Notes under the pieces: model-generated | The model's database searches: none | Seen by the model: the letters and a program-made list of their open reading frames with translations, nothing else | What the model was told of the DNA's origin: nothing | Origin: Escherichia phage vB_EcoM_FT | Sequence record: MT682710.1 | DNA length: 64,000 nucleotides | Reading direction: 5' to 3' (one strand) | In this document: positions 1-64,000 of the stretch, piece after piece | How positions within the stretch are numbered: position 1 is the stretch's first letter | Layout of the letters: each line of letters begins with the position of its first letter | Program-made: the position numbers and the translations under genes

Positions 1-2467
1 TGTACTAGAAGTATTTGTGGCCGGTCAATTTGCTGGTACTCAGAGATATACTGTAAGATCTGGTAACGTATATGTTCGATCTTTGTCTGCTAAATGGAAC
101 GGTGTTAACGGTCCGTGGGGAGTTTGGCGTAATGTTCAAGCGTCAACTCGTCCACTTTCACAAACGATTGACCTTGATAGCTTGGGAGAATTAGAACATT
201 GCGGCTTATGGCGAAATAGTTCAAGTTCTATCGCATCGTTTGACCGTCATTATCCAGAAGAAGGATCAGCCGCACAAGGATTTTTGGAAATTTTTGAGGG
301 TGGTTTATACGCAAGAACTCAACGTTATACAACTAGATTTGGTGTTGTTTATACTCGCTGTCTTGCTGCTGCATGGGATGCATCTGCGCCTAAATGGGGA
401 CCGTGGCAACAAGTCGGTAATGTCACACCGGCGACTTTCTATGACGGAGACTTGAATGATTTTAAAGCTCCTGGGTTATATAACATTTTAGGCACTGATG
501 CCGTTATTAACTGTCCTACTGGTGAAGGTTTACCAGCCGTTATTGTTGGTTTGCTGGAAGTTAAACAGCGTGCTTCTGGTGGTGCTATTTTCCAAAAATT
601 TACTACTGCCGGAACGGGTGAAACTACTCGCGATCGTATTTTTGAGCGTGCATATACTGGTGGTGCGTGGGGTGCATGGAACGAAGTATATACATCTTAT
701 TCTCTTCCAATTACTTTGGGTATGGGTGGTATTAAAGCTCAATTAGCGGAGTTAGATTGGCAAACCTTTGATTTTGTTCCTGGTAGTATGTTTAGCGTTC
801 CTTTGAACAAAATAAAGAACATGCCAGCAAATATGGATTGGGGGACGATTGACGGAAACTTGGTTATGTTTTCCGTTGGTCCTAGCGAACACACTGGCAC
901 AGGGCGTACTGTTCAGGTTTGGCGCGGTACTGTATCCCAGACAAACTACCGTTATTTCGTTGTTCGTATCGCTGGTAATCCAGGAAGTAGGACTAATACT
1001 TGTCGCCGTGTTGTTCTTGAAGACGGATCACATACTTGGACTGCTCAACAAAACTTTAGGGGATTGCTGAATATCACTGCTGCTGTTAATCTTGGTGCTA
1101 ATCAGAAAATTTCACTTGCTCCAGGAGCATATATTCAAGCCCCTGCTAGCGGTTCTGGTTCTAATACTTACGCAAATCAGAATACTACCATTGCGCCATT
1201 ATATCAGGCTATTGACGATTCAAATAAAAACCAGTTTGCGCCAATTGTTAAACAGAAAAATACTGTAAGTAATATCACCTTTGCCACTGGTATGGCTATA
1301 GGTACATCCGAATATAAGATCATTGCTCAGGGTGATTTATCCGCTGATGGAACAGCAGATGGGTTAAAACAGTGGACTTTCATGCCGTCAGGTTATTTTA
1401 AATCTCCAGGGCGTGTATATGTCGGTGATGCGTTCCTTAATACAGATGGTAACATTGCTGGTTCAATCTGGAAGAAATACAACGATGCAACCAATTTAGA
1501 TGCTGCCTTGAATACTCGCCTAGGTAAAGGCGGTGATACGATGACAGGTCGGTTAACAATCAATGCACCTAATGATTCTATTGTATTATCAACGACTGCT
1601 AGTAATTCTTTGCATATTCGTGGTGACATAGACGGGACTGGTAACTGGTATATTGGTAAGGGTGGTGCTGATAATTCGCTAGCATTTTATAGCTATGCTT
1701 CTCAGGCGGCAGTACATATCACAAACAATGGTGAGATTGCGTTAACCCCGCAAAATACCGCAATGGTTAACGTTAACCGTGACCGTGTACACATTAACGG
1801 TTCTGGATGGATTGCTAGACAACCGGGTGATTGGGGCAACCAATGGCGAGTAGAAGCTCCATTATTCGTTGATCATGGTTATGTTTCACAGGATTGTTAT
1901 TATCCTATTCTTAAAGCAAGAAGCGTTATAACCAATCAAGGATATAGCACCGCTGTTGACTTTGGTATGCGTCGTATTCCATCACAGTGGGGGCAAGCAA
2001 TCATTCGTGTCGGATCCACGGAGGCTTCTCCTGATGCTGGACACCCACAAGCTGTGTTTGAATTCCATCATGATGGATTCTTTTATACACCAGGAAATGG
2101 TAGCTTTAGCGATGTGTATATTCGTTCTGACTCCCGTCTCAAGATTAATAAAGAAGAATTAGAATATGGAGCGGTCGAAAAAGTTTGCCGACTGAAAGTT
2201 TATATTTACGATAAAGTTAAGTCTATTAAAGACCGTAGTGTTATTAAACGTGAAGTTGGTATTATTGCTCAGGACCTTGAAAAGGAATTACCGGAAGCTG
2301 TATCTAAAGTTGAAGTTGATGGATCTGATGTTCTGACAATTTCTAACTCTGCTGTGAATGCTCTTTTAATTAAGGCTATTCAGGAAATGAGTGAAGAAAT
2401 TAAAGAATTGAAAACGCCTCTCTTTACTAAAATTGCTCGCAAAATTAGTAAATATTTTAAATTCTAA
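1..2467 (+). CDS. 37: long tail fibre distal subunit gp37, 3' part (5' end outside window), with C-terminal intramolecular chaperone-like domain
   Basis: Frame is open from the window edge to TAA at 2465-2467. Fibre-like G/S/T/N-rich sequence with two copies of a TQRYT-R-G-VY-R-L-A-W motif. The last ~113 aa, starting at SDSRLK (nt 2126), resemble the auto-cleaved chaperone domain of phage fibres. Followed by 38 and t. Confidence 0.85.
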   Translation, partial: VLEVFVAGQFAGTQRYTVRSGNVYVRSLSAKWNGVNGPWGVWRNVQASTRPLSQTIDLDSLGELEHCGLWRNSSSSIASFDRHYPEEGSAAQGFLEIFEGGLYARTQRYTTRFGVVYTRCLAAAWDASAPKWGPWQQVGNVTPATFYDGDLNDFKAPGLYNILGTDAVINCPTGEGLPAVIVGLLEVKQRASGGAIFQKFTTAGTGETTRDRIFERAYTGGAWGAWNEVYTSYSLPITLGMGGIKAQLAELDWQTFDFVPGSMFSVPLNKIKNMPANMDWGTIDGNLVMFSVGPSEHTGTGRTVQVWRGTVSQTNYRYFVVRIAGNPGSRTNTCRRVVLEDGSHTWTAQQNFRGLLNITAAVNLGANQKISLAPGAYIQAPASGSGSNTYANQNTTIAPLYQAIDDSNKNQFAPIVKQKNTVSNITFATGMAIGTSEYKIIAQGDLSADGTADGLKQWTFMPSGYFKSPGRVYVGDAFLNTDGNIAGSIWKKYNDATNLDAALNTRLGKGGDTMTGRLTINAPNDSIVLSTTASNSLHIRGDIDGTGNWYIGKGGADNSLAFYSYASQAAVHITNNGEIALTPQNTAMVNVNRDRVHINGSGWIARQPGDWGNQWRVEAPLFVDHGYVSQDCYYPILKARSVITNQGYSTAVDFGMRRIPSQWGQAIIRVGSTEASPDAGHPQAVFEFHHDGFFYTPGNGSFSDVYIRSDSRLKINKEELEYGAVEKVCRLKVYIYDKVKSIKDRSVIKREVGIIAQDLEKELPEAVSKVEVDGSDVLTISNSAVNALLIKAIQEMSEEIKELKTPLFTKIARKISKYFKF

Positions 2468-2473
2468 CAACAA

Positions 2474-2488
2474 GGGGGAAATGCCCCC
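2474..2488 (+). other. GC stem-loop (GGGGG-aaatg-CCCCC) between 37 and 38
   Basis: Perfect 5-bp G/C stem directly after the gene 37 stop; only three T follow, so more likely an RNA stability or processing hairpin than a terminator. Confidence 0.35.
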
Positions 2489-2503
2489 TTTGGAGTATAA
2501 ATT

Positions 2504-3304
2504 ATGGCAGTAGTTGGTGTTCCTGGTTGGATTGGAAGTTCAGCCGCAAATGAAACAGGACAGCGCTGGATGAGTCAAGCGGCTGGTCAATTAAGATTGG
2601 GTGTTCCTTGCTGGATGAGTCAATTTGCAGGTCGCTCACGAGAAATTATTCACACGCTTGGAGCAGACCATAACTTCAATGGTCAATGGTTCCGAGATAG
2701 ATGTTTTGAGGCAGGTAGTGCACCTATAGTGTTTAATATTACCGGAAATTTGGTATCATATTCTAGAGATGTTCCTTTATTCTTCATGTACGGAGATACA
2801 CCGAATGAATATGTTCAATTAAATATTATTGGGGGCGCTCATATGTGGGGTAGAGGTGGACAAGGTGGATGGACTCATTCCGGTGGAGATGGTAATGGAC
2901 AACAAGGCGGGCATTGTATTCAAAATGACATTGGCGGACGATTAAGAATTAACAACGGTGGAGTAATTTGCGGTGGAGGTGGAGGTGGAGGTGGTATCGC
3001 TTATCGTCCTCACTCTGGCGCAAACTGGCAAGATATTGGTGGTGGCGGTGGAAGACCATTTGGCCCAGGAGGTGGCGGCGGTTACTCGGGTGGCGCAGCT
3101 TCATACGACGGTCCAGGAGGTGGTTATCAATACGGAAATGCTCATTCTGGCCAGGGTGGCGATGCCGGAGGAAATGGACAAAATGCCTGGTCGGATGGCG
3201 GTAAAGTTCTAAAGGTTGGTGCAGGAGGAGCAGCAGGTTATGCTGTCATAGGGTCTGCTCCAACGTGGCAAAATGTTGGAGCAATATATGGTCCAAGAGT
3301 ATAA
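2504..3304 (+). CDS. 38: receptor-recognising adhesin gp38, T2-type with glycine-rich motifs
   Basis: ATG at 2504 with GGAG 8 nt upstream. 266 aa: conserved N-terminal part, then poly-Gly blocks ([22 protein letters not shown]) separating short variable segments. Lies between 37 and t. Confidence 0.85.
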
Positions 3305-3334
3305 TGTGAATAAATACCCTTAAAAGGAGGGTCT

Positions 3335-3991
3335 ATGGCAGCACCTAGAATATCATTTTCGCCCTCTGATATTCTGTTTGGTGTTCTAGATCGCTTGTTC
3401 AAAGATAACGCTACCGGGAAAGTTCTTGCTTCCCGGGTAGCTGTCGTAATTCTTTTATTTATGATGGCGATTGTTTGGTATAGGGGAGATAGTTTCTTTG
3501 AGTACTATAAGCAATCAAAGTATGAAACATACAGTGAAATTATTGAAAAGGAAAGAAATGCACGCTTTGAATCTGTCGCCCTGGAACAACTCCAGATAGT
3601 TCATATATCATCTGAGGCAGACTTTAGTGCGGTGTATTCTTTCCGCCCTAAAAACTTAAACTATTTTGTTGATATTATAGCATATGAAGGAAAATTACCT
3701 TCAACAATAAGTGAAAAATCACTTGGAGGATATCCTGTTGATAAAACTATGGATGAATATACAGTTCATTTAAATGGACGTCATTATTATTCCGACTCAA
3801 AATTTGCTTTTTTACCAACTAAAAAGCCTACTCCCGAAATAAACTACATGTACAGTTGTCCATATTTTAATTTGGATAATATCTATGCTGGAACAATAAC
3901 CATGTACTGGTATAGAAATGATCATATAAGTAATGACCGCCTTGAATCAATATGTGCTCAGGCGGCCAGAATATTAGGAAGGGCTAAATAA
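3335..3991 (+). CDS. t: holin T
   Basis: 218 aa; sequence matches the T4 holin as I recall it (MAAPRISFSPSDILFGVLDRLFKDNATGK...); AAGGAGG 5 nt upstream of the ATG; one N-terminal TM segment and a large periplasmic domain. Confidence 0.95.
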   Translation: MAAPRISFSPSDILFGVLDRLFKDNATGKVLASRVAVVILLFMMAIVWYRGDSFFEYYKQSKYETYSEIIEKERNARFESVALEQLQIVHISSEADFSAVYSFRPKNLNYFVDIIAYEGKLPSTISEKSLGGYPVDKTMDEYTVHLNGRHYYSDSKFAFLPTKKPTPEINYMYSCPYFNLDNIYAGTITMYWYRNDHISNDRLESICAQAARILGRAK

Positions 3992-4264
3992 TTATTTGTT
4001 CGTATACATCTCTAGATATCGATATACACCCTCAAAACCCTCGTTGAATTCGTCGATGAGGGTTTTCTTATCTTCTTGAGTTAATTCAGAAACAATTTTA
4101 CGAAATGAATTCTGATTTAACTTTCTATCTTCATGCGTTACTCCAATCTCATTCAGAAATGCAATAAAATTAGCACGATTCTCAACAATATCTTCTCTGG
4201 AAAATTTAATCAAAATAGACGCAACAGTAATAATTTCACGAACTGTATCAATGTTTTTATTCAT
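3992..4264 (-). CDS. asiA: anti-sigma70 factor AsiA
   Basis: 90 aa; sequence (MNKNIDTVREIITVASILIKFSREDIV...) matches T4 AsiA as recalled; convergent with t with no intergenic space. Confidence 0.9.
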   Translation of the reverse strand: MNKNIDTVREIITVASILIKFSREDIVENRANFIAFLNEIGVTHEDRKLNQNSFRKIVSELTQEDKKTLIDEFNEGFEGVYRYLEMYTNK

Positions 4265-56494: not shown

Positions 56495-56665
56495 AATAAA
56501 CCCTTACCTTAAATAGATAAGGGTATTTATTATTTTCAAGTATTGTAAAACATTTGATTCAATCGCTTATATTGCCGAATCTTTTGGTCAGAAAAAGAAA
56601 TTTGAGTTTCAAGCCATTCAATGTATTCTGCGGCAGCTTGCATCAGGTTACCTTCATAGCCATCG

Positions 56666-57040
56666 TTATTTTTTTTGTGCAGCTAATTTAGCTAATGCGT
56701 ATGAAATACGTTCACCTTGAAAATCGGCTTTAGGCTTCTGAACAACTTGATTAGTTCGCTCTACAACTTCTTCAATTTCGCCATTTTCAATGGATTCAGT
56801 ATTCCACAAGCACCAATACGTAATTGGCTTATCATAGATGTTAATAATCTTTCCGTCGGAAAGTTCAATTTCAATAATTCCAGTATCAGGCTCTATATCA
56901 TCTTCACATTCTTTTGCAAGTTCACGAACTTTAAAGACAGTACCTGCACTAAGTTCCGGCCAGTAATTACACAGCCCTGTATCAGCACGATTAATTCTAA
57001 ACCACTTATCTACTGTAATCATGTCCCATCTCCATATCAA
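56666..57040 (-). CDS. hypothetical protein (124 aa), apparently truncated by a frameshift at an A8 tract
   Basis: ORF ends ...AQKK-TAA inside A8; the +1 frame continues open to 56536, giving about 167 aa in total. Confidence 0.5.
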   Translation of the reverse strand: MIWRWDMITVDKWFRINRADTGLCNYWPELSAGTVFKVRELAKECEDDIEPDTGIIEIELSDGKIINIYDKPITYWCLWNTESIENGEIEEVVERTNQVVQKPKADFQGERISYALAKLAAQKK

Positions 57041-57144
57041 TTAAGTCATTTATCGTTGGTTCATTATATACTGTTTCTTCATCAGTGTAAACCGGTTCTT
57101 CCGGCTCTGGCTCTACAGTTTCCCATCTAGCCGCCCACCAAGGT

Positions 57145-57354
57145 TTAACCCCGAAGCTTATTAAGTTCTTCATAATCAATCCAGGATTCTAGTCCTGATG
57201 GCAAATCAGATTCAATTTCCCAAAGAAGCTCTTCAATTTTCTGAAGACGATCTAGTTCTTCGGCTGGAATAGTAACCATTGACGGAGTTCTTGATACACT
57301 AATATCGTAAATCATATTTACCCCAGTTTGACCATACAATCGCCATATTTCCAT
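57145..57354 (-). CDS. hypothetical protein (69 aa)
   Basis: Acidic small ORF. Confidence 0.4.
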   Translation of the reverse strand: MEIWRLYGQTGVNMIYDISVSRTPSMVTIPAEELDRLQKIEELLWEIESDLPSGLESWIDYEELNKLRG

Positions 57355-57533
57355 TTAGAAATAGACTTTTCACCGTTAGAATAATAAACTTCGAGTTTAG
57401 CACGATTATTTTTAATTTGAATAACCTTTGCTGTCATCAAAGTTCCATACCCATAATAAACTGCAACCTCATCACCTACATATACCGCGCTTCCGCGGTA
57501 GTCATGGATATAATCAGTTCCTTCGAGCATCAT
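57318..57533 (-). CDS. hypothetical protein (71 aa)
   Basis: ORF with ATGA coupling to nrdC. Confidence 0.4.
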   Translation of the reverse strand: MMLEGTDYIHDYRGSAVYVGDEVAVYYGYGTLMTAKVIQIKNNRAKLEVYYSNGEKSISKWKYGDCMVKLG

Positions 57534-57793
57534 TTAAAGTATTCCCGCAATTGGTCAAATCCACCAATATGACTTCCATCAGGAGCAAATACTTGTGGCA
57601 TTGTCAAACCAATTTGAGTATCACGACCTAGTTTAGTCAGAAGCTCAGCGATTTTCTCATCATCAAAAACACCTTTTTCCGGCATAATGTTGATAAATTC
57701 AAACGGTTGTTTCTTCACAGTCAAGAGACGTTTTGCATTATCGCAATACACACATTTATGGATGTTGCTATCATAACCATATACTTTAAACAT
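57530..57793 (-). CDS. nrdC: glutaredoxin/thioredoxin NrdC
   Basis: 87 aa with a CVYC active site near the N-terminus. Confidence 0.8.
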   Translation of the reverse strand: MFKVYGYDSNIHKCVYCDNAKRLLTVKKQPFEFINIMPEKGVFDDEKIAELLTKLGRDTQIGLTMPQVFAPDGSHIGGFDQLREYFK

Positions 57794-57794
57794 A

Positions 57795-58037
57795 TTATTC
57801 CTTAATTCCTAGTACTTGTTTAAAAGTCTCGTCGTAATCAAGACTTTGGCCCGTTTGTTCTTTATGTTTGTATATAATATCACTTACTTCTGATAGCATA
57901 TTTTTATATGAACGAGTTAAAGCAGATTTAAGCACGCTGTATCTATCAGGAAATTTACCGTGTTCATTATAATAAGCTATTGCTAATTCACGGACTGCCT
58001 TTTCAGCAGTCTCCATATATTCTTTACGCTTGGTCAT
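57795..58037 (-). CDS. hypothetical protein (80 aa)
   Basis: ORF upstream of nrdC. Confidence 0.45.
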
Positions 58038-58039
58038 TT

Positions 58040-58429
58040 TTAATCCAAAATATTATTAGGCATTGGTTGAACACTCGCAAGTTCTTTAAAGAACTCAGTA
58101 GAGTCAGGTAATTTAACCATTTCCGGAGCATGCTTACTAAATTTATGTTTGCAATGACGGCATTTATATTCAAGTTCCGGTTTACGCCAGTTAATCAATT
58201 GAACTTGTTCAGTACCGCATTCAGGACAATTAGGAACGTTTTTAGAAGCCCTTTCGCGACGTTCAACCATAACCATAATAGCATCCCAGGCTGGAGGTTT
58301 AAAATCTAAATCATCACAACCATGAATCTTTCCGCGCATTTCCAGATCGTCTTCTTCACCAGCCATAATAATTTTAATTAGACTGGAATTACTTGAAGCT
58401 GCAATATCTTCTAATAGACGCTTTTTCAT
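58040..58429 (-). CDS. zinc-ribbon protein (129 aa)
   Basis: CPEC...CRHCKH four-Cys motif. Confidence 0.5.
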
Positions 58430-59355
58430 TTCAATACCTCAATAGCATTACGTAAACCATTTGCTTTTGCATTAAGAGCTTTTAACAATTTAGTGTGTTC
58501 GGCAATCTGAGCTTCAACTTCAACTAGTCGAGATTTGAGGTATTCACGTTCTTCGCTCAAGTTATCAATCTTTTCTACTTTAGGCTCTTTTACAACTGTC
58601 TTATATGTATTAGGGTTCTTCAGTTTAATTAAAATGCGTGAACTGTATAACATTGAACCATTATCTTCGGTTTCGTCATACATTTCTACTACGTCCATGA
58701 TTTTTAACATCATGCGGAGTTTATAAGATAACGAACGAATAGTTTTGTTGTGCTTATTAATTTCTCTAGAGTTCATGGTGCCGAGATTACGTGAGTAATA
58801 ATAAGGAACCTGGATATTAATTAATACTGATGAACCACCTGGCTTGTGTGTTACTTCATCAGCAATAACCCAATCCTTAACATGAACTGTATTTGTACGG
58901 TCATCGCCCGCGGTAAATAGTTTGCGAGCATGCTTAAAAAGCATATTCACTTGGTCATTGAATTGACAAGCAAATTTATCAGCAAATTTAGTTTCAGGAA
59001 TGGTAGATAACCAATCAGCCAAATGAGTCTTTTTAACATCGTTAACAATAGTAAATTCAACCAAATCAGTTATAGATGTCTCAGATTTAATAAAGCTCGG
59101 CTTCATAAAGTTTTTAATGTTATCGCGAGCTACAGTAGAAGATAACATACGAGAACGTTTAAACCATTGAAGCAAATTGCCCAACGAATGAGAATAAGCG
59201 TTTTGAGTATCTTTACAGATATGATTTTCCTGGCCAACATATTGAAGGAAATCACGAAGAATATTATTGATTACTGCCCTGTGTCCGATCTGATAATTAC
59301 GGTGTTTAGTAATAAGACTGTCAAAATAATCAATATAATGTTTACGAGTTTTCAT
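58426..59355 (-). CDS. large hypothetical protein with C-terminal coiled coil (309 aa), paralogue family member
   Basis: N-terminus MKTRKHYIDYF...; ends in a heptad-repeat helix ([42 protein letters not shown]). Confidence 0.55.
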   Translation of the reverse strand: MKTRKHYIDYFDSLITKHRNYQIGHRAVINNILRDFLQYVGQENHICKDTQNAYSHSLGNLLQWFKRSRMLSSTVARDNIKNFMKPSFIKSETSITDLVEFTIVNDVKKTHLADWLSTIPETKFADKFACQFNDQVNMLFKHARKLFTAGDDRTNTVHVKDWVIADEVTHKPGGSSVLINIQVPYYYSRNLGTMNSREINKHNKTIRSLSYKLRMMLKIMDVVEMYDETEDNGSMLYSSRILIKLKNPNTYKTVVKEPKVEKIDNLSEEREYLKSRLVEVEAQIAEHTKLLKALNAKANGLRNAIEVLK

Positions 59356-59407
59356 GTTCTTCTCACTTGGTTAATGATTTATACTCCGAGCCATCCTTGG
59401 CTTTAAA

Positions 59408-60409
59408 TTACTTAATTAACTGTAAAGCTTGTTCCAGACGATCAAGACGATTAACAGATTCTTCCCAAATCCTTTTAGCCTGCTCATATTCTTTCTGCGC
59501 TTTATTAGAAATTTCTAGAACTTCTTTATAAGCTTTTTCTAGTGCAATAACTTCTGGACGAATTTCTACCGGTTCAGGTGAATCGTCAAGACATTCCATT
59601 AGTTCCTCAAGGGTAGTTTCTTCTTTAGGAGTATTCACAATTTCATCACATTTTTGTTGGTAAATTTCTTTATCAGTAGGTGAATAAGCACATTTCACTT
59701 CACGAAGACTAATTACAATTTTATATCCTTCCCAACCGCATATATTCTTAAAAGGATAAGTATGAATATTTTCTACTGTTTCCATACAAAGTAATGCGGT
59801 CTCTAATTGACGAGTTATAGTGCTAGCAATTGAGAAAAATTTATTAATATTCTTTTGGTTAGTTTCTGGTGTAAAAAATCCATAATTCACAAAAATAGAT
59901 ACTTTATTTTTATCAAGTTCATATTCTTTTACGATAATCATATCAGAAGCCAAAGGATGAATTTGACGATAATCGCCATAACATAATTTAGAAGCTGATT
60001 TTAGAATTTGTCCTTTGAAAAGTCTGAAATTACTAATCCAACGACGAGTAAAAATATTCTCAGGGTCTTCTTTATTATTAAGATGATAAGAATTAACATC
60101 ACCGAACCAATTATATCCTACTACATCTTTAGTTCGTTTAATTTCTTTCCCAAAATTACCAAGAATATCCCGATTAACCAAATATGAAAGAAGACGAGAC
60201 TCTTTAAAGGTTTTCTTGATAAGATCTTTATCTACACGACTAGAAATTTTACGAATTTCATGAATAAATTTAGTAGAAGAAACAATACTTGCATCAACAC
60301 TATTGAGCCATTGATTGATAATAGAAAGAACGATATTTTGACCAAACATCGGTATAGCTTTATCATCAATAACGCTATTGAATGATTTGATATATTCGTT
60401 ACGAGTCAT
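59408..60409 (-). CDS. large hypothetical protein with C-terminal coiled coil (about 333 aa), paralogue family member
   Basis: True start is the ATG at 60409 (MTRNEYIKSF...) downstream of an early promoter and GGAG; the C-terminus is a heptad helix. Confidence 0.55.
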   Translation of the reverse strand: MTRNEYIKSFNSVIDDKAIPMFGQNIVLSIINQWLNSVDASIVSSTKFIHEIRKISSRVDKDLIKKTFKESRLLSYLVNRDILGNFGKEIKRTKDVVGYNWFGDVNSYHLNNKEDPENIFTRRWISNFRLFKGQILKSASKLCYGDYRQIHPLASDMIIVKEYELDKNKVSIFVNYGFFTPETNQKNINKFFSIASTITRQLETALLCMETVENIHTYPFKNICGWEGYKIVISLREVKCAYSPTDKEIYQQKCDEIVNTPKEETTLEELMECLDDSPEPVEIRPEVIALEKAYKEVLEISNKAQKEYEQAKRIWEESVNRLDRLEQALQLIK

Positions 60410-60434
60410 ATTAATCTCCTCAGTAGAAAGTAAG

Positions 60435-60469
60435 AACATTATACCACATCCTTGTGGCAAAGTAAACTA
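60435..60469 (-). promoter_or_regulatory. early promoter (GTTTAC / TATAAT)
   Basis: Shares the 30-nt core with the promoter at 15162-15193. Confidence 0.55.
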
Positions 60470-61489
60470 GTTCAGTGCATTTAGTGCATTGTTCAGTTTA
60501 GAACGTTGCTTTGTCAGATTTTGAACCCTTGACTGAGCTTGTTCTAACGCCTTTTCAGCTTCTAGCACTTCATTGGTCGCTTTAACGAGTTCATCATCTA
60601 CTGCCTTAAGAGACTTCTCAATCGCATCCGCGTGCCATTTTTCAACAGGTTTAAGACTCGGATTTTCAACAGGAAGAAAATTCACTTTATTGAATTTCCA
60701 TGCATCTTTATTACCTGAACTATACATCCAAAATTTAGGATCGTTTGATAAGTAATTGGATAAATTTAAGTTATCTTGTACTTCTTGCTTTTTCTCTTGC
60801 GGGACTTCGTCCTTTCTCAAAAATTCATATTTAAATGAAACGATCATATCAAGTTCATATGATGTTGTATCTAACTTAAATCGTTCAAAACGAGGTAAAA
60901 TCTTAGATTGAACAGCAGCAACAACATCCATATACTTAAATGCTTCTGTCAACTGTGATTTAAGGCATTCACAAATTGAAAGAGAATTTTTTGTATTAGG
61001 TTTAAAGCTAATTCGTGCAGTTCTATTATTTTCTTTTAACGGTCTTACTTCCATCTGAAGAGTATAACCATCAAATTTCAGGTTCTTTAAGTTAATATCA
61101 GAACCTTTTAATCGACTAGCAGTAGACAAAATTTGCTTTAATTGTTTACGGAATAGAGCAATAAATCTCCATTCAAGACGATAATGATTTGGATTGAAAA
61201 ATCCAGATGATAAATCGACCTTACTCTGACCAACGCCTTGAACAAATAGAGGATTTTTATAATCAATAGTTTTACAGAAATCGGTGAGCTGCTCACGAGC
61301 AGTCATTTGTGTAATATATCCTGCTTCGCTAAAATTACGCACCCATTCGCTGCTGTTCAAATGTTTAAAGGCATGAATGGAACAATTAACTTTACCAAGG
61401 TCTAAATTATTTTCGCACAAAAATGTCATAGCATCACGAGTATAACTGGCATTACGAACCATATCTTCAATTTGAGAACGAGTTTTCAT
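60467..61489 (-). CDS. large hypothetical protein with C-terminal coiled coil (340 aa), paralogue family member
   Basis: N-terminus MKTRSQIEDMV...; C-terminal helix ...LEAEKALEQAQSRVQNLTKQRSKLNNALNALN. Confidence 0.55.
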   Translation of the reverse strand: MKTRSQIEDMVRNASYTRDAMTFLCENNLDLGKVNCSIHAFKHLNSSEWVRNFSEAGYITQMTAREQLTDFCKTIDYKNPLFVQGVGQSKVDLSSGFFNPNHYRLEWRFIALFRKQLKQILSTASRLKGSDINLKNLKFDGYTLQMEVRPLKENNRTARISFKPNTKNSLSICECLKSQLTEAFKYMDVVAAVQSKILPRFERFKLDTTSYELDMIVSFKYEFLRKDEVPQEKKQEVQDNLNLSNYLSNDPKFWMYSSGNKDAWKFNKVNFLPVENPSLKPVEKWHADAIEKSLKAVDDELVKATNEVLEAEKALEQAQSRVQNLTKQRSKLNNALNALN

Positions 61490-61497
61490 AGTGTTCC

Positions 61498-62400
61498 TTA
61501 AGATTTAAGTAAATCAACAATTTTAATTAACTTTTCACGCTCAGATTTAGCTTTACTACTCAATCCAGATAGTCTGAAAATTTCATCATCATATTGCTGA
61601 ATAGAAATATTTAGCTCTTCAATCTGCTTATTAAAATAAGCAATTTGTTCAGAATGTTTTTCATTACTGCGAACTGGTACAGGTTTTGTAGGTAATTTAG
61701 ATGAACTGGATTCATCCGGGCGATAAATTAAAATGCAATTTGAACCAATCGGACATTTAGCACCAGACACATATTCTAATGTTCCAGCTTCTTTTAAAAT
61801 TTCAAAAGCTAAACAGAGATGATGACCCATATTGGCATAATCTGTAGAGTGAGCTCTGACGTAATAATCATCTCCACGAGTGCTAAATTTAAAGCATTTA
61901 AGGTCTTCTGTATTATTGGTCTTAAAAATCATTTGTTTATCTAGACCTTTAGCTAATCGAGCACCTAATGCTAATAATCGTCGTTGATTTTCCCACAAAT
62001 CTGCGATCATTTGGTCAAATGATAATTTCGGCATTAGTCGACCATAAAGGTCGTATCCTTTATTATAATTGCGAAGGATTTCACTCGCATTAATACGAGA
62101 CAATGCTCCAATTTTATTAAGGGCTTTCATAATGCGATTAGATAAACCCATTCCAGACCCGTTTGTTCGCTGCAAATGTTTTTCTAATCCAAATCCAATA
62201 TCAACTTTAAATTTATCTAAAATTTCAGCATGAACATCTCTGTCAATAACATTCAAATCCAAAGTTGGGTTAAATCTATGAAAAAATTTATCTGGCTCTC
62301 CACGACGAAGTACAGTCCATTCATTTAATTTTTTATTAACTAAAGATTTAATTACTGCATTGACATTATTAATTACTACTGACATATTTTCCTCACTCAA
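61498..62400 (-). CDS. large hypothetical protein with Pro-rich linker and C-terminal coiled coil (300 aa)
   Basis: ...SSSSKLPTKPVPV linker followed by a heptad helix; ATGA coupled to the upstream membrane ORF. Confidence 0.5.
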   Translation of the reverse strand: MSEENMSVVINNVNAVIKSLVNKKLNEWTVLRRGEPDKFFHRFNPTLDLNVIDRDVHAEILDKFKVDIGFGLEKHLQRTNGSGMGLSNRIMKALNKIGALSRINASEILRNYNKGYDLYGRLMPKLSFDQMIADLWENQRRLLALGARLAKGLDKQMIFKTNNTEDLKCFKFSTRGDDYYVRAHSTDYANMGHHLCLAFEILKEAGTLEYVSGAKCPIGSNCILIYRPDESSSSKLPTKPVPVRSNEKHSEQIAYFNKQIEELNISIQQYDDEIFRLSGLSSKAKSEREKLIKIVDLLKS

Positions 62401-62807
62401 TTTTCAATTTTAATTTTACTAAATACGCAGAATATGATGGAAAAGACTATATAAGCACCACACACAGATTGAACTAATACCATTCCAAAGAACCAAACAA
62501 TATTATCAAACAATGTCTGTTTTACGTCGAAAGGACGTAAACTTACAGTAATATTATCACCTTTTTCTATTGAAGAATACATCTCTGGGGAAATATATTC
62601 GCTAAATCTATAACCGTCTTTGAGTTCATATACGGCAATAAACGATAAACTAGACCCTTTTCCTTGTGTTCCTGTAATGGTATTAACTACAGTAACATCA
62701 TAATCTTTATAATGCATATAATCATTAATTGCGTAATAACCATATGCAACTACTACACATAAACAACATATCAATAAATTCAATCTTTTAATTATCAACT
62801 GTTTCAT
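62397..62807 (-). CDS. membrane protein (136 aa) with N- and C-terminal TM helices
   Basis: Hydrophobic segments LLICCLCVVVAYGYYAI and IVWFFGMVLVQSVCGAYIVFSIIFCVF. Confidence 0.5.
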   Translation of the reverse strand: MKQLIIKRLNLLICCLCVVVAYGYYAINDYMHYKDYDVTVVNTITGTQGKGSSLSFIAVYELKDGYRFSEYISPEMYSSIEKGDNITVSLRPFDVKQTLFDNIVWFFGMVLVQSVCGAYIVFSIIFCVFSKIKIEN

Positions 62808-62862
62808 AATAATCTCAATTAAAAGGGCTTAGAACCATTATACCATCCTTGGTATAAAGCGG

Positions 62863-63390
62863 TTATGCGAGTACCGTCTTTAACCGTTCTTCAAACTTCC
62901 GAAGAGTATTTTGGCGTTCAGCTCTTTGCTTTTTGTAAGTTTCAATACGCTCTGAAATGAGAGTGTATCGTTCATTTACTGATTCTTTCATAAAATCAGG
63001 AATTTCACGAGAAGCTTTAATCTCGTCAAATTTATCAATAACAGCTTGCTCTTCAGCAATTAAGTTATCATACATTAAAATATCTTTCTTGATGAACTCA
63101 ATATCTTCTTGAGTTACACGAGATAATTTAGATGCTTTATCCTTTTTGTACTGTTCGTTAGTATCACGAGACCAGTGCAATGTACGATTTTTATTCGTAT
63201 TCTTGTAAATTTCTACAATACCAATCTCATCGATAATAACGATCCAATTCCAACGAGATTTGTAAATTTGTCCTCCGTCAACCGTGATTTCACCTCCGAT
63301 TGAGATGTCATTAAAGAACTTGCTTTGTGCTTCTGATTTAAATTTACCATCGTTGTAATTTACCAGGTTGAAAATATCTTTAGCGTTCAT
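62863..63390 (-). CDS. hypothetical protein with C-terminal charged helix (175 aa)
   Basis: Early promoter and GGAGG RBS upstream. Confidence 0.5.
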   Translation of the reverse strand: MNAKDIFNLVNYNDGKFKSEAQSKFFNDISIGGEITVDGGQIYKSRWNWIVIIDEIGIVEIYKNTNKNRTLHWSRDTNEQYKKDKASKLSRVTQEDIEFIKKDILMYDNLIAEEQAVIDKFDEIKASREIPDFMKESVNERYTLISERIETYKKQRAERQNTLRKFEERLKTVLA

Positions 63391-63411
63391 TTTGTGTTCC
63401 TCCGTAGTTGA

Positions 63412-63449
63412 TAGTTGTATAGTACCACAAAGGAACAGTCTTGTAAACC
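63412..63449 (-). promoter_or_regulatory. early promoter cassette
   Basis: Minus strand GGTTTACAAGACTGTTCCTTTGTGGTACTATACAACTATCAACTACGGAGGAAC, member of the repeat family. Confidence 0.55.
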
Positions 63450-63450
63450 G

Positions 63451-63765
63451 CTAAAAGAAACTTCTTTCACAATTTTTTCCACTGAACCACGCGCTCACCG
63501 CTTTCTTAGTCTCAGGAGCAGTGTTATCCATAAACCATTCAAAAGCAGCCTTTTTATGATTCTGGAGGGCTTCTCGGGCTTTAATCTGCTCACGGTCTAT
63601 TAACACTAACATATGAGCCTTTCTTGTCACCAAGGGCTTCTTATGATTCTTGGAGTATTCCCAGTCATTTGTCCAACGCATTGTCGTTGCGAACTGATGA
63701 ACCGCGTCTTTAATTTTAGTTTCGTAAATTTCACGAGCCTTTGAGTATAACATCACTACCTCCAT
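63451..63765 (-). CDS. hypothetical protein (104 aa)
   Basis: ORF near the window end. Confidence 0.45.
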   Translation of the reverse strand: MEVVMLYSKAREIYETKIKDAVHQFATTMRWTNDWEYSKNHKKPLVTRKAHMLVLIDREQIKAREALQNHKKAAFEWFMDNTAPETKKAVSAWFSGKNCERSFF

Positions 63766-64000
63766 TTACCAGTTTAATTCTAGTCATCTTTTTGATGGCA
63801 GTCCATATAATCTATTTCTGAACTGCCTTTTTGTCTTAGAAGGCCTCTTATGAATTTATTTCAGAAGAGTAACCTCAGCGATTTCTTGCCAACCATTTTT
63901 GTCGGTCATAATAAAGTCAGCAAGATAAAGTGCAGTACGCAGTGAAACATTGCGTAAACGGTTAACATTGACTTTCATCCATGATAATGCTTTATAAGTT

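Follow-up and report, generated by a model that had tools for sequence, protein, structure and literature searches.

The DNA considered here is a 64,000-nucleotide stretch (the window) of Escherichia phage vB_EcoM_FT (MT682710.1), a Tequatrovirus, that is, a T4-like phage. It carries an array of six open reading frames (ORFs) that are named nrdC.3–nrdC.8 by mapping onto the annotated relatives NR1 and T4T. Four of the products, NrdC.3, NrdC.4, NrdC.5 and NrdC.6, are tandem paralogues with a common architecture. We lean, with moderate confidence, towards regarding these four as a modular counter-defence family, in which a variable body would bind the target and a constant tail would serve for oligomerisation or docking. 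The genes themselves are long-annotated ORFs of T4, one of them with a published function, and the paralogy of NrdC.3 and NrdC.4 is already implicit in Pfam and in PHROGs, where these two share one family (phrog_1435) and the other array proteins each have a separate one. The four-member superfamily, the shared architecture, the tail motif and the difference in constraint between the tails and the fast, mosaic bodies were not found in the literature searched.

When single sequences are compared by BLASTP, NrdC.3 and NrdC.4 are the sole pair detected (26% identity over 226 amino acids, E 4e-8). Profiles for the families were made from small alignments of divergent orthologues from RB69, VR7, Bp7, MN04 and T4; with these, hhalign relates NrdC.3 to NrdC.4 (probability 98%, E 2e-13, 224 columns) and NrdC.4 to NrdC.5 (probability 86%, E 5e-6, 242 columns), and any pair that includes NrdC.6 or NrdC.8 gives noise (E ≥0.06). 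Enriched profiles of NrdC.3/4/5 match NrdC.6 at a probability of 95% and E 3.5e-8. This match is not driven by the coiled coil, because it remains significant when the last 60 residues are cut (85%, E 6e-6), and for the same reason NrdC.6 is to be counted as a paralogue and not as a protein of end-only similarity. The original prediction had described a diversified paralogous family from the related N-termini of the first three proteins, and had likened the fourth to them in how it ends. Pairwise and profile alignments bear this out, and extend the family to NrdC.6, whose body is homologous as well as its end. Across 26 aligned sequences from the NrdC.3/4/5 families, T3, R4 and I7 are invariant; more distant members begin MTRNEV, MTRIEY or MITREE, and body motifs common to the paralogues, such as FK.SR.LS…FGK and AS(K/R)L..G.D, can be recognised by eye.

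Bridging proteins from other phages connect the same families. IME523 gp085 is found by the NrdC.6 hidden Markov model (HMM) at 2e-7 and by the NrdC.3/4/5 profile at 97% probability, E 3e-11. A member of phrog_26858 related to NrdC.4/5 (P0233) matches both phrog_1435 and phrog_2351, and its tblastn search of the whole phage collection matches IME523 gp085 at 2e-9. Structural searches with Foldseek agree: the NrdC.5 model matches NrdC.6 of phage JS10 in BFVD (E 1.7e-3, probability 0.99), and the NrdC.5 and NrdC.6 models both match a protein of Pectobacterium phage PM2 (9.5e-6 and 1.9e-7, respectively) and one of Klebsiella phage Mineola (3.5e-8 and 2.9e-4). Matches to proteins of Enterobacter phage IME523 and of the Acinetobacter phages Acj9 and Acj61 are added by the NrdC.6 model alone. 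The T4-like phage proteins matched in this way are uncharacterised and of about 300–335 amino acids. It would appear from these comparisons that PF26897, PF23882, PF26899 and phrog_26858 can be merged into a single four-member superfamily.

The layout shared by the paralogues consists of a helical subdomain, a ββαββ subdomain, a disordered linker rich in Pro, Glu and Lys, and a C-terminal amphipathic helix of approximately 40–55 amino acids. In the AlphaFold2 model of NrdC.5 (predicted local distance difference test, pLDDT, 71), a disordered linker at residues 225–283 is followed by a single helix at 284–339 (pLDDT 71–90 within the helix); the model of NrdC.6 (pLDDT 76) has the same layout, with residues 232–246 as the linker and two helices after it (247–276 and 282–299). 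The linker is of low confidence in both. The expected order of linker and then helix is thus seen in the two models, and the helices, at approximately 40–56 residues, are longer than the 35–45 first suggested.

The predicted C-terminal helices of the array proteins show coiled-coil heptad periodicity. This was assessed with a home-made heptad scorer, which applies core weights at positions a and d and surface weights elsewhere, and considers 28 residues at a time among the last 50. NrdC.3–NrdC.6 and NrdC.8 take ranks 1–5 among the 58 minus-strand ORFs of at least 100 amino acids in the window, with scores of 11.0–13.0 (median 3.75) and z values of 2.7–3.8 relative to shuffles of each protein; in the complete genome of the relative HP3 (168 kb, 176 ORFs), they take ranks 1–4 and 6. 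The claim that five proteins share a C-terminal heptad helix therefore stands as far as periodicity goes, but NrdC.8 is without the terminal motif described below.

When the tails of divergent orthologues are aligned at their right-hand ends, a motif anchored to the C-terminus emerges, approximately R-x-(K/R)-L-x-x-A-(I/L)-x-(A/L)-L-K-COOH, of which KLMNVIELLKD is one example of an ending. The motif is present in NrdC.3, NrdC.4, NrdC.5 and NrdC.6 and in their orthologues in VR7, Bp7, RB69 and Marfa, and loosely in IME523. As a regular expression, it is matched in the window by NrdC.3–6 and by one other of the 231 ORFs; in the complete HP3 genome, all four matches among the 176 ORFs of at least 100 amino acids are the paralogues. 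In ungapped end-anchored BLOSUM comparisons, offset 0 scores far above all other offsets, heptad-phase ones included, for the pairs NrdC.3–4, NrdC.3–5 and NrdC.4–6; the remaining pairs among the four paralogues are tied, and all pairs with NrdC.8 are at background. Single-copy relatives also keep the tail, Marfa ending in QRGKLLRAIQALK and IME523 in QRAKLLHAMQELRK. The last 19 or so residues of NrdC.4 are nearly invariant: a protein only about 30% identical to others of the NrdC.4 family (P0225) keeps WEESTNRLDRLEQALELVK almost unchanged.

In RB69, the tail of 'nrdC.5' (...KLFNAMNALKS) is out of frame with the rest of the gene as deposited. The annotated protein (L010:8642-9680) is without the terminal helix, and the expected tail LQLQYSKLFNAMNALKS lies in another frame just downstream; either the gene is a pseudogene or the sequence as deposited contains a frameshift. 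The end of Bp7 nrdC.8 and the nrdC.4 of one IMG/VR locus (L003) are broken in a similar fashion.

The bodies evolve faster than the genes around them. Ratios of nonsynonymous to synonymous substitution (dN/dS) were obtained by the Nei–Gojobori method from seven Tequatrovirus sequences. For whole gene, body and tail, respectively, they are 0.28, 0.29 and 0.20 for nrdC.3; 0.19, 0.22 and 0.03 for nrdC.4; 0.20, 0.20 and 0.20 for nrdC.5; and 0.11, 0.13 and 0.00 for nrdC.6. The flanking genes give 0.03, 0.02 and 0.07 (nrdC.8), 0.06, 0.09 and 0.00 (nrdC.9) and 0.04, 0.03 and 0.10 (nrdC.2). Whole-gene values are thus 0.11–0.28 for the paralogues as against 0.03–0.06 for their neighbours. The tails of NrdC.4 and NrdC.6 are under much stronger purifying selection than their own bodies; that of NrdC.3 is only modestly more constrained than its body. 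Column conservation is higher in tails than in bodies, and the surface heptad positions b, c and f are conserved at or above the level of the body, which argues for something more than a generic zipper.

The tail would, in the explanation that we prefer, be the constant module, self-associating as a coiled coil to give a multivalent inhibitor; its alternative role would be docking to something shared. A distinct proposal, which takes up the common partner of the original prediction, is that the tails do not self-associate at all and instead dock the four paralogues onto one partner, for which NrdC.8 is the best candidate within the locus and a host hub the alternative. We consider this rather unlikely, and the evidence is divided. 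The common end-anchored motif of 12 residues, the conserved surface positions and the tail dN/dS of ≤0.03 in NrdC.4 and NrdC.6 would all suit such a partner, as would NrdC.8 itself, which has a long heptad helix, lies upstream in synteny in four genera and is 99–100% conserved in Tequatrovirus; furthermore, searches with NrdC.6 and NrdC.8 match 741 and 745 phage records, respectively, with the same organism profile. Nevertheless, the tails differ between paralogues outside the last 12 or so residues, which fits paralogue-specific self-association at least as well, and the single-copy relatives in Marfa and IME523 are tailed even though no NrdC.8 homologue was found in the loci of approximately 14 kb around them.

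Recombination has also shaped the bodies. Two alleles of nrdC.3, only 60% identical, occur within the genus, and the NrdC.3 of the window is 60% identical to that of T4 and 77% identical to that of RB69. In a sliding comparison of identity, residues 1 to approximately 75 are 80–90% identical to T4 and only 33–40% identical to RB69 (Mosigvirus), whereas the remainder is 80–96% identical to RB69 and only 23–66% identical to T4. The nrdC.3 of the window is a recombinant T4/RB69 mosaic allele.

Copies of the paralogues that are frameshifted, split, fused or internally duplicated are found in nature, and the frameshifted, split and fused ones speak for the dispensability of these genes. In one (P0119, on contigs of up to 167 kb), residues 146–272 of NrdC.5 are fused to residues from approximately 138 to 309 of NrdC.3, with loss of the NrdC.5 tail, the whole of nrdC.4 and the N-terminus of NrdC.3. 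The two parts meet at a short FN..VN string that both share; the positions joined are not equivalent, and we regard the protein as a deletion fusion, having rejected a homologous recombinant. The NrdC.6 of Shigella phage Sf25 (P0120, 378 amino acids) has an internal tandem duplication of residues ~181–263, which takes in the ββαββ subdomain and the linker and runs into the beginning of the helix. A further case is a predicted protein of 173 amino acids on a single metagenome contig of 803 bp (P0234; L013:120-641, ENA ERZ27280904). Its last 53 residues are those of an NrdC.5 tail and agree at 100% with the copy of a Tequatrovirus relative (IMG/VR locus L005), and the start of nrdC.4 follows; the body is unrelated, and no DNA match to it was found in the phage collection. 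It is either a natural swap of a body onto a conserved tail or a chimeric assembly, and we treat it as a lead only.

These observations bear on a more elaborate possibility, which we think doubtful, namely that the helix docks interchangeable, fast-evolving 'warhead' bodies onto a shared platform, so that the array would work as one modular counter-defence system, open to recombination, and not as four inhibitors each acting alone. Candidates for such a platform are NrdC.8, a hetero-oligomer formed by the paralogues, and a helix-binding site that host sensors have in common, for instance in tetratricopeptide repeat (TPR) domains. The mosaic nrdC.3 and the metagenomic protein with an NrdC.5 tail would then be traces of module exchange.

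The functional evidence comes from NrdC.5. The protein of the window matches Pfam DUF7235 (PF23882) over its full length, residues 1–340 (E 6.3e-123; 410 bits, the gathering cut-off being 30), is 96% identical to T4 NrdC.5 over 340 amino acids, and lies as in T4 between nrdC.6 and nrdC.4 with shared neighbours; by homology and gene order, it is the orthologue of T4 nrdC.5. Srikant et al. (2022, eLife, PMC9391042) found that a T4 clone with deletions had lost the ability to plate on ECOR17, that deletion of dsr1 from the host restored plating, and that cloned dsr1 protected MG1655. T4 nrdC.5 supplied in trans restored infection of dsr1 cells by the deletion mutant, a result of genetic suppression only; paralogy with nrdC.3, nrdC.4 and nrdC.6, the domain architecture and the mechanism of nrdC.5 are not described there. 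Dsr1 is a SIR2 NADase; according to a 2026 preprint (PMC12803255), the major capsid proteins of phages are what its TPR sensor recognises. The NrdC.5 of the window would be expected to overcome Dsr1, as published for its T4 orthologue, and nrdC.3, nrdC.4 and nrdC.6 are candidates for further anti-defence factors. The suggestion that the array is a counter-defence family has thus gained one member with published activity against a defence system, T4 NrdC.5, and a neighbourhood that fits.

The array is located in the gp49–nrdC–mobD accessory region of T4-like phages, which holds several counter-defence genes. NrdC.1 inhibits Septu (bioRxiv 10.1101/2025.11.20.689424) and Gp49.2 inhibits OLD (PMC13096335). 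With these anti-defence neighbours, and being dispensable and variable among close relatives, the array has the features of a counter-defence island. NrdC.1 of the window is 100% identical to that of T4; T4 genes 49.2 and 49.3 are absent, and in their place (57006–57533) are two small ORFs of 69 and 71 amino acids, as in phage Lutter. The accessory content of the gp49–nrdC island varies between close relatives.

In the scheme that we favour, the bodies would be specificity modules, each neutralising a different protein of host immunity by direct binding, and the target of NrdC.5 would be Dsr1 itself, a SIR2 NADase with a TPR sensor. A contrasting explanation is that the family alters the physiology of the host or early processes of the phage, so that NrdC.5 acts on Dsr1 indirectly, for example by keeping the trigger from being sensed or by buffering loss of NAD+, and that there is no panel of defence-specific inhibitors. 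The published experiment, showing suppression and not binding, accommodates such an indirect effect, as do the lack of similarity to known inhibitors and dN/dS values below 1 throughout. We nonetheless judge it improbable: the genes are dispensable, patchy and mosaic, as is typical of accessory host-range genes, and neighbouring genes encode direct anti-defence factors.

It might also be proposed that the ββαββ body is a decoy, mimicking a virion fold of the tail-terminator or tail-completion type and so occupying sensors of phage structural proteins. Weak Foldseek matches to tail completion and terminator proteins, and the recognition of a structural protein by the Dsr1 sensor (PMC12803255), point in this direction. 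The reported trigger of Dsr1 is, however, the capsid protein and not a tail terminator, and the sequence identity of the matches is 5–9%; we regard this idea as very improbable.

Several points weigh against the modular counter-defence scheme. Functional data exist for NrdC.5 only, one of the four paralogues, and its mechanism was not found in the literature searched; a search by gene name found no functional data for nrdC.3, nrdC.4, nrdC.6 or nrdC.8. Among known anti-defence proteins, PADLOC models and PDB entries, none is homologous to the family: apart from DUF7235, the six array proteins returned no meaningful match in PADLOC or Pfam, and against PDB sequences the NrdC.3/4/5 profile found designed helical repeats alone (E ≥ 0.002) and the NrdC.6 profile found nothing. 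The NrdC.5 tail is no more constrained than its body, and positive selection is not demonstrated, as all dN/dS values are below 1. Finally, heptad periodicity was judged with our own scorer, which is not a validated coiled-coil predictor such as COILS or MARCOIL.

The distribution of the family is narrow. Among 1.84 billion representative proteins, only 16 clusters match the NrdC.3/4/5 profile, and those examined by BLAST are sequences of T4-like phages or fragments of them; as far as these searches reach, NrdC.3–6 are an accessory protein family specific to Straboviridae. There are three or four copies in Tequatrovirus, Mosigvirus, Dhakavirus and Gaprivervirus. Gaprivervirus and Dhakavirus have nrdC.4, nrdC.5, nrdC.6 and nrdC.8 and are without nrdC.3 and nrdC.7; RB69 has nrdC.3, nrdC.5, nrdC.6 and nrdC.8, with nrdC.7 relocated; Marfavirus and Kanagawavirus have a single family member, immediately upstream of nrdC.2. 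The simplest history would be one ancestral gene that underwent tandem expansion in the E. coli T-even lineage, the array arising as this single copy was duplicated and the bodies then diverged and recombined.

The six ORFs first listed for this region are all present, on the minus strand (Table 1), and are adjoined by ORFs for NrdD, endonuclease VII and the glutaredoxin NrdC. Over the whole of positions 58000–63800, identity to Escherichia phage vB_Eco_Geo is 98.5%; matches to this segment come from 742 phage records. The start of NrdC.6 is probably the ATG, since homologues align from M6. In databases, many homologues of NrdC.4 are given 10 more residues (343 amino acids, starting MFLLSTEEIN), from an ATG that in the window lies at 60439. 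The promoter-like site at 60466–60438 overlaps that ATG, and the implied transcription start would fall downstream of it; this overlap, together with the MTR N-terminus found throughout the family, favours the shorter form beginning at 60409. The annotation of phage Lutter has promoters at places equivalent to both candidate promoters.

Table 1. Positions in the window of the nrdC.3–nrdC.8 genes, candidate promoters and C-terminal helices
Feature	Positions	Strand	Description
nrdC.3	58426–59355	minus	309 amino acids; phrog_1435 at 2.7e-116; array paralogue
nrdC.4	59408–60409	minus	333 amino acids; phrog_1435 at 1.1e-168; homologues carry PF26897; array paralogue; N-terminus MTRNEY
nrdC.5	60467–61489	minus	340 amino acids; Pfam DUF7235 (PF23882); 96% identical to T4 NrdC.5
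nrdC.6	61498–62400 or 61498–62385	minus	300 amino acids from TTG or 295 from ATG; phrog_2257; homologues carry PF26899; distant fourth paralogue
nrdC.7	62397–62807	minus	136 amino acids; phrog_2547; protein with two transmembrane segments
nrdC.8	62863–63390	minus	175 amino acids; phrog_2274; unrelated body
Promoter candidate upstream of nrdC.4	60438–60466	minus	sigma-70-like (T4 early-type); TTTACT-17-TATAAT with TG extension; consensus match only
Promoter candidate upstream of nrdC.8	63419–63447	minus	sigma-70-like; TTTACA-17-TACTAT with TG extension; consensus match only
NrdC.3 C-terminal amphipathic helix (predicted)	58429–58545	minus	residues ~271–309; heptad score 11.9
NrdC.4 C-terminal amphipathic helix (predicted)	59411–59554	minus	residues ~286–333; ends NRLDRLEQALQLIK
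NrdC.5 C-terminal helix (predicted)	60470–60640	minus	residues 284–340; ends QRSKLNNALNALN; heptad score 13.0
NrdC.6 C-terminal helices (predicted)	61501–61662	minus	residues 247–300 (300-residue numbering); ends EREKLIKIVDLLKS; heptad score 11.0
NrdC.8 C-terminal heptad helix (predicted)	62866–62991	minus	residues ~134–175; ends RKFEERLKTVLA; heptad score 12.4

The other two genes of the array are of a different kind. NrdC.8 had been placed in the family as its fifth member on account of its end; the heptad helix is there, but the body is unrelated. Membership was rejected because hhalign gives E ≥0.06 against every other family, HMM searches are negative, and the tail has neither the shared terminal motif nor end-anchored similarity. 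A KPV15 protein, also of 175 amino acids, that is matched by the NrdC.5 model could not be linked to NrdC.8, as tblastn with NrdC.8 finds no Klebsiella phage. In each of the four genera examined, NrdC.8 is found immediately upstream of the array; it is 99–100% identical across Tequatrovirus, 83% identical in RB69 and 67–69% identical in Dhaka/Gaprivervirus. In a DRT1 paper, nrdC.8 is mentioned only as a down-regulated transcript and is treated as a nucleotide reductase, a view not supported by its sequence. NrdC.7, the protein with two transmembrane segments that had been noticed within the array, indeed has hydrophobic segments at residues 3–27 and 103–132; it is not an obligate member, being absent from Gaprivervirus and Dhakavirus and moved next to nrdC in RB69.

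It should be noted that 'thioredoxin' is the label given throughout nrdC.1–nrdC.10 in many GenBank records, and that the T6 record calls nrdC.5 'tail sheath stabilizer and completion protein'; the sequences support neither. Only the true nrdC (57530–57793) encodes a glutaredoxin-like protein, and we have discarded a thioredoxin identity for the array genes; the labels presumably reflect spill-over of the name from the nrdC.N locus names.

Other features of the window may be mentioned briefly. At 56539–57040, T4 Pin (the Lon protease inhibitor) is matched by tblastn in two pieces in different frames (residues 1–117 and 116–161), and the ORF list shows only an ORF of 124 amino acids; pin is either frameshifted, and thus a pseudogene, or affected by a sequencing error. 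NrdC.2 (58040–58429) has 129 amino acids as against 104 in T4, the C-terminal 30 or so being absent from the T4 copy, and shows the CxxC…CxxC pattern of a zinc ribbon, with a match to Pfam Zn_ribbon_8 (E 1.5e-5) that falls short of the gathering score. Positions 1–4000 differ from the remainder in GC content (0.41–0.43 versus approximately 0.34 elsewhere) and have plus-strand ORFs, one of 816 amino acids running in from near the start of the window, followed by ORFs of 266 and 218. By the gene order of T4, these sizes would fit the distal tail-fibre gene, its adhesin or chaperone, and the holin.

No lytic phage has been studied more closely than T4, and still the majority of its accessory genes are without a known function. 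Three tandem paralogues of nrdC.5 now become concrete and cheaply testable candidates for anti-defence factors, and the combination of a variable body with a constant tail provides a rationale for mapping specificity by domain swaps.

Comparison with known systems begins with T4 NrdC.5 (DUF7235), from which the window orthologue does not differ as a gene, whether in identity, gene order or neighbours. The tail terminator (λ gpU-like) fold and the α/β sandwich folds of the RNA polymerase α N-terminal/Rpb11-like type resemble the array proteins at 5–15% identity, with no conserved functional site. Unlike gpU-like proteins, the array proteins have an early accessory gene context, not a late structural one, an extra N-terminal helical subdomain, a linker and a coiled-coil tail; membership of the tail-terminator group, which would combine the fold match with late structural-gene context, was rejected. 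DSAD1 of Bacillus phage SPbeta, which inhibits DSR2 (PMC10981675, PMC11087589), can be likened to NrdC.5 by outcome only, that is, escape from a SIR2 NADase. DSR2 and Dsr1 have different sensors and triggers (the tail tube and the major capsid protein, respectively), and DSAD1, unlike NrdC.5, is not known as a member of an array of tandem paralogues. Gp49.2 and NrdC.1 share with the array the accessory region, the strand, candidate promoters of the early type, non-essentiality and a patchy distribution. They differ from it in being single-domain proteins of 80–106 amino acids that are unrelated in sequence and have no coiled-coil tail.

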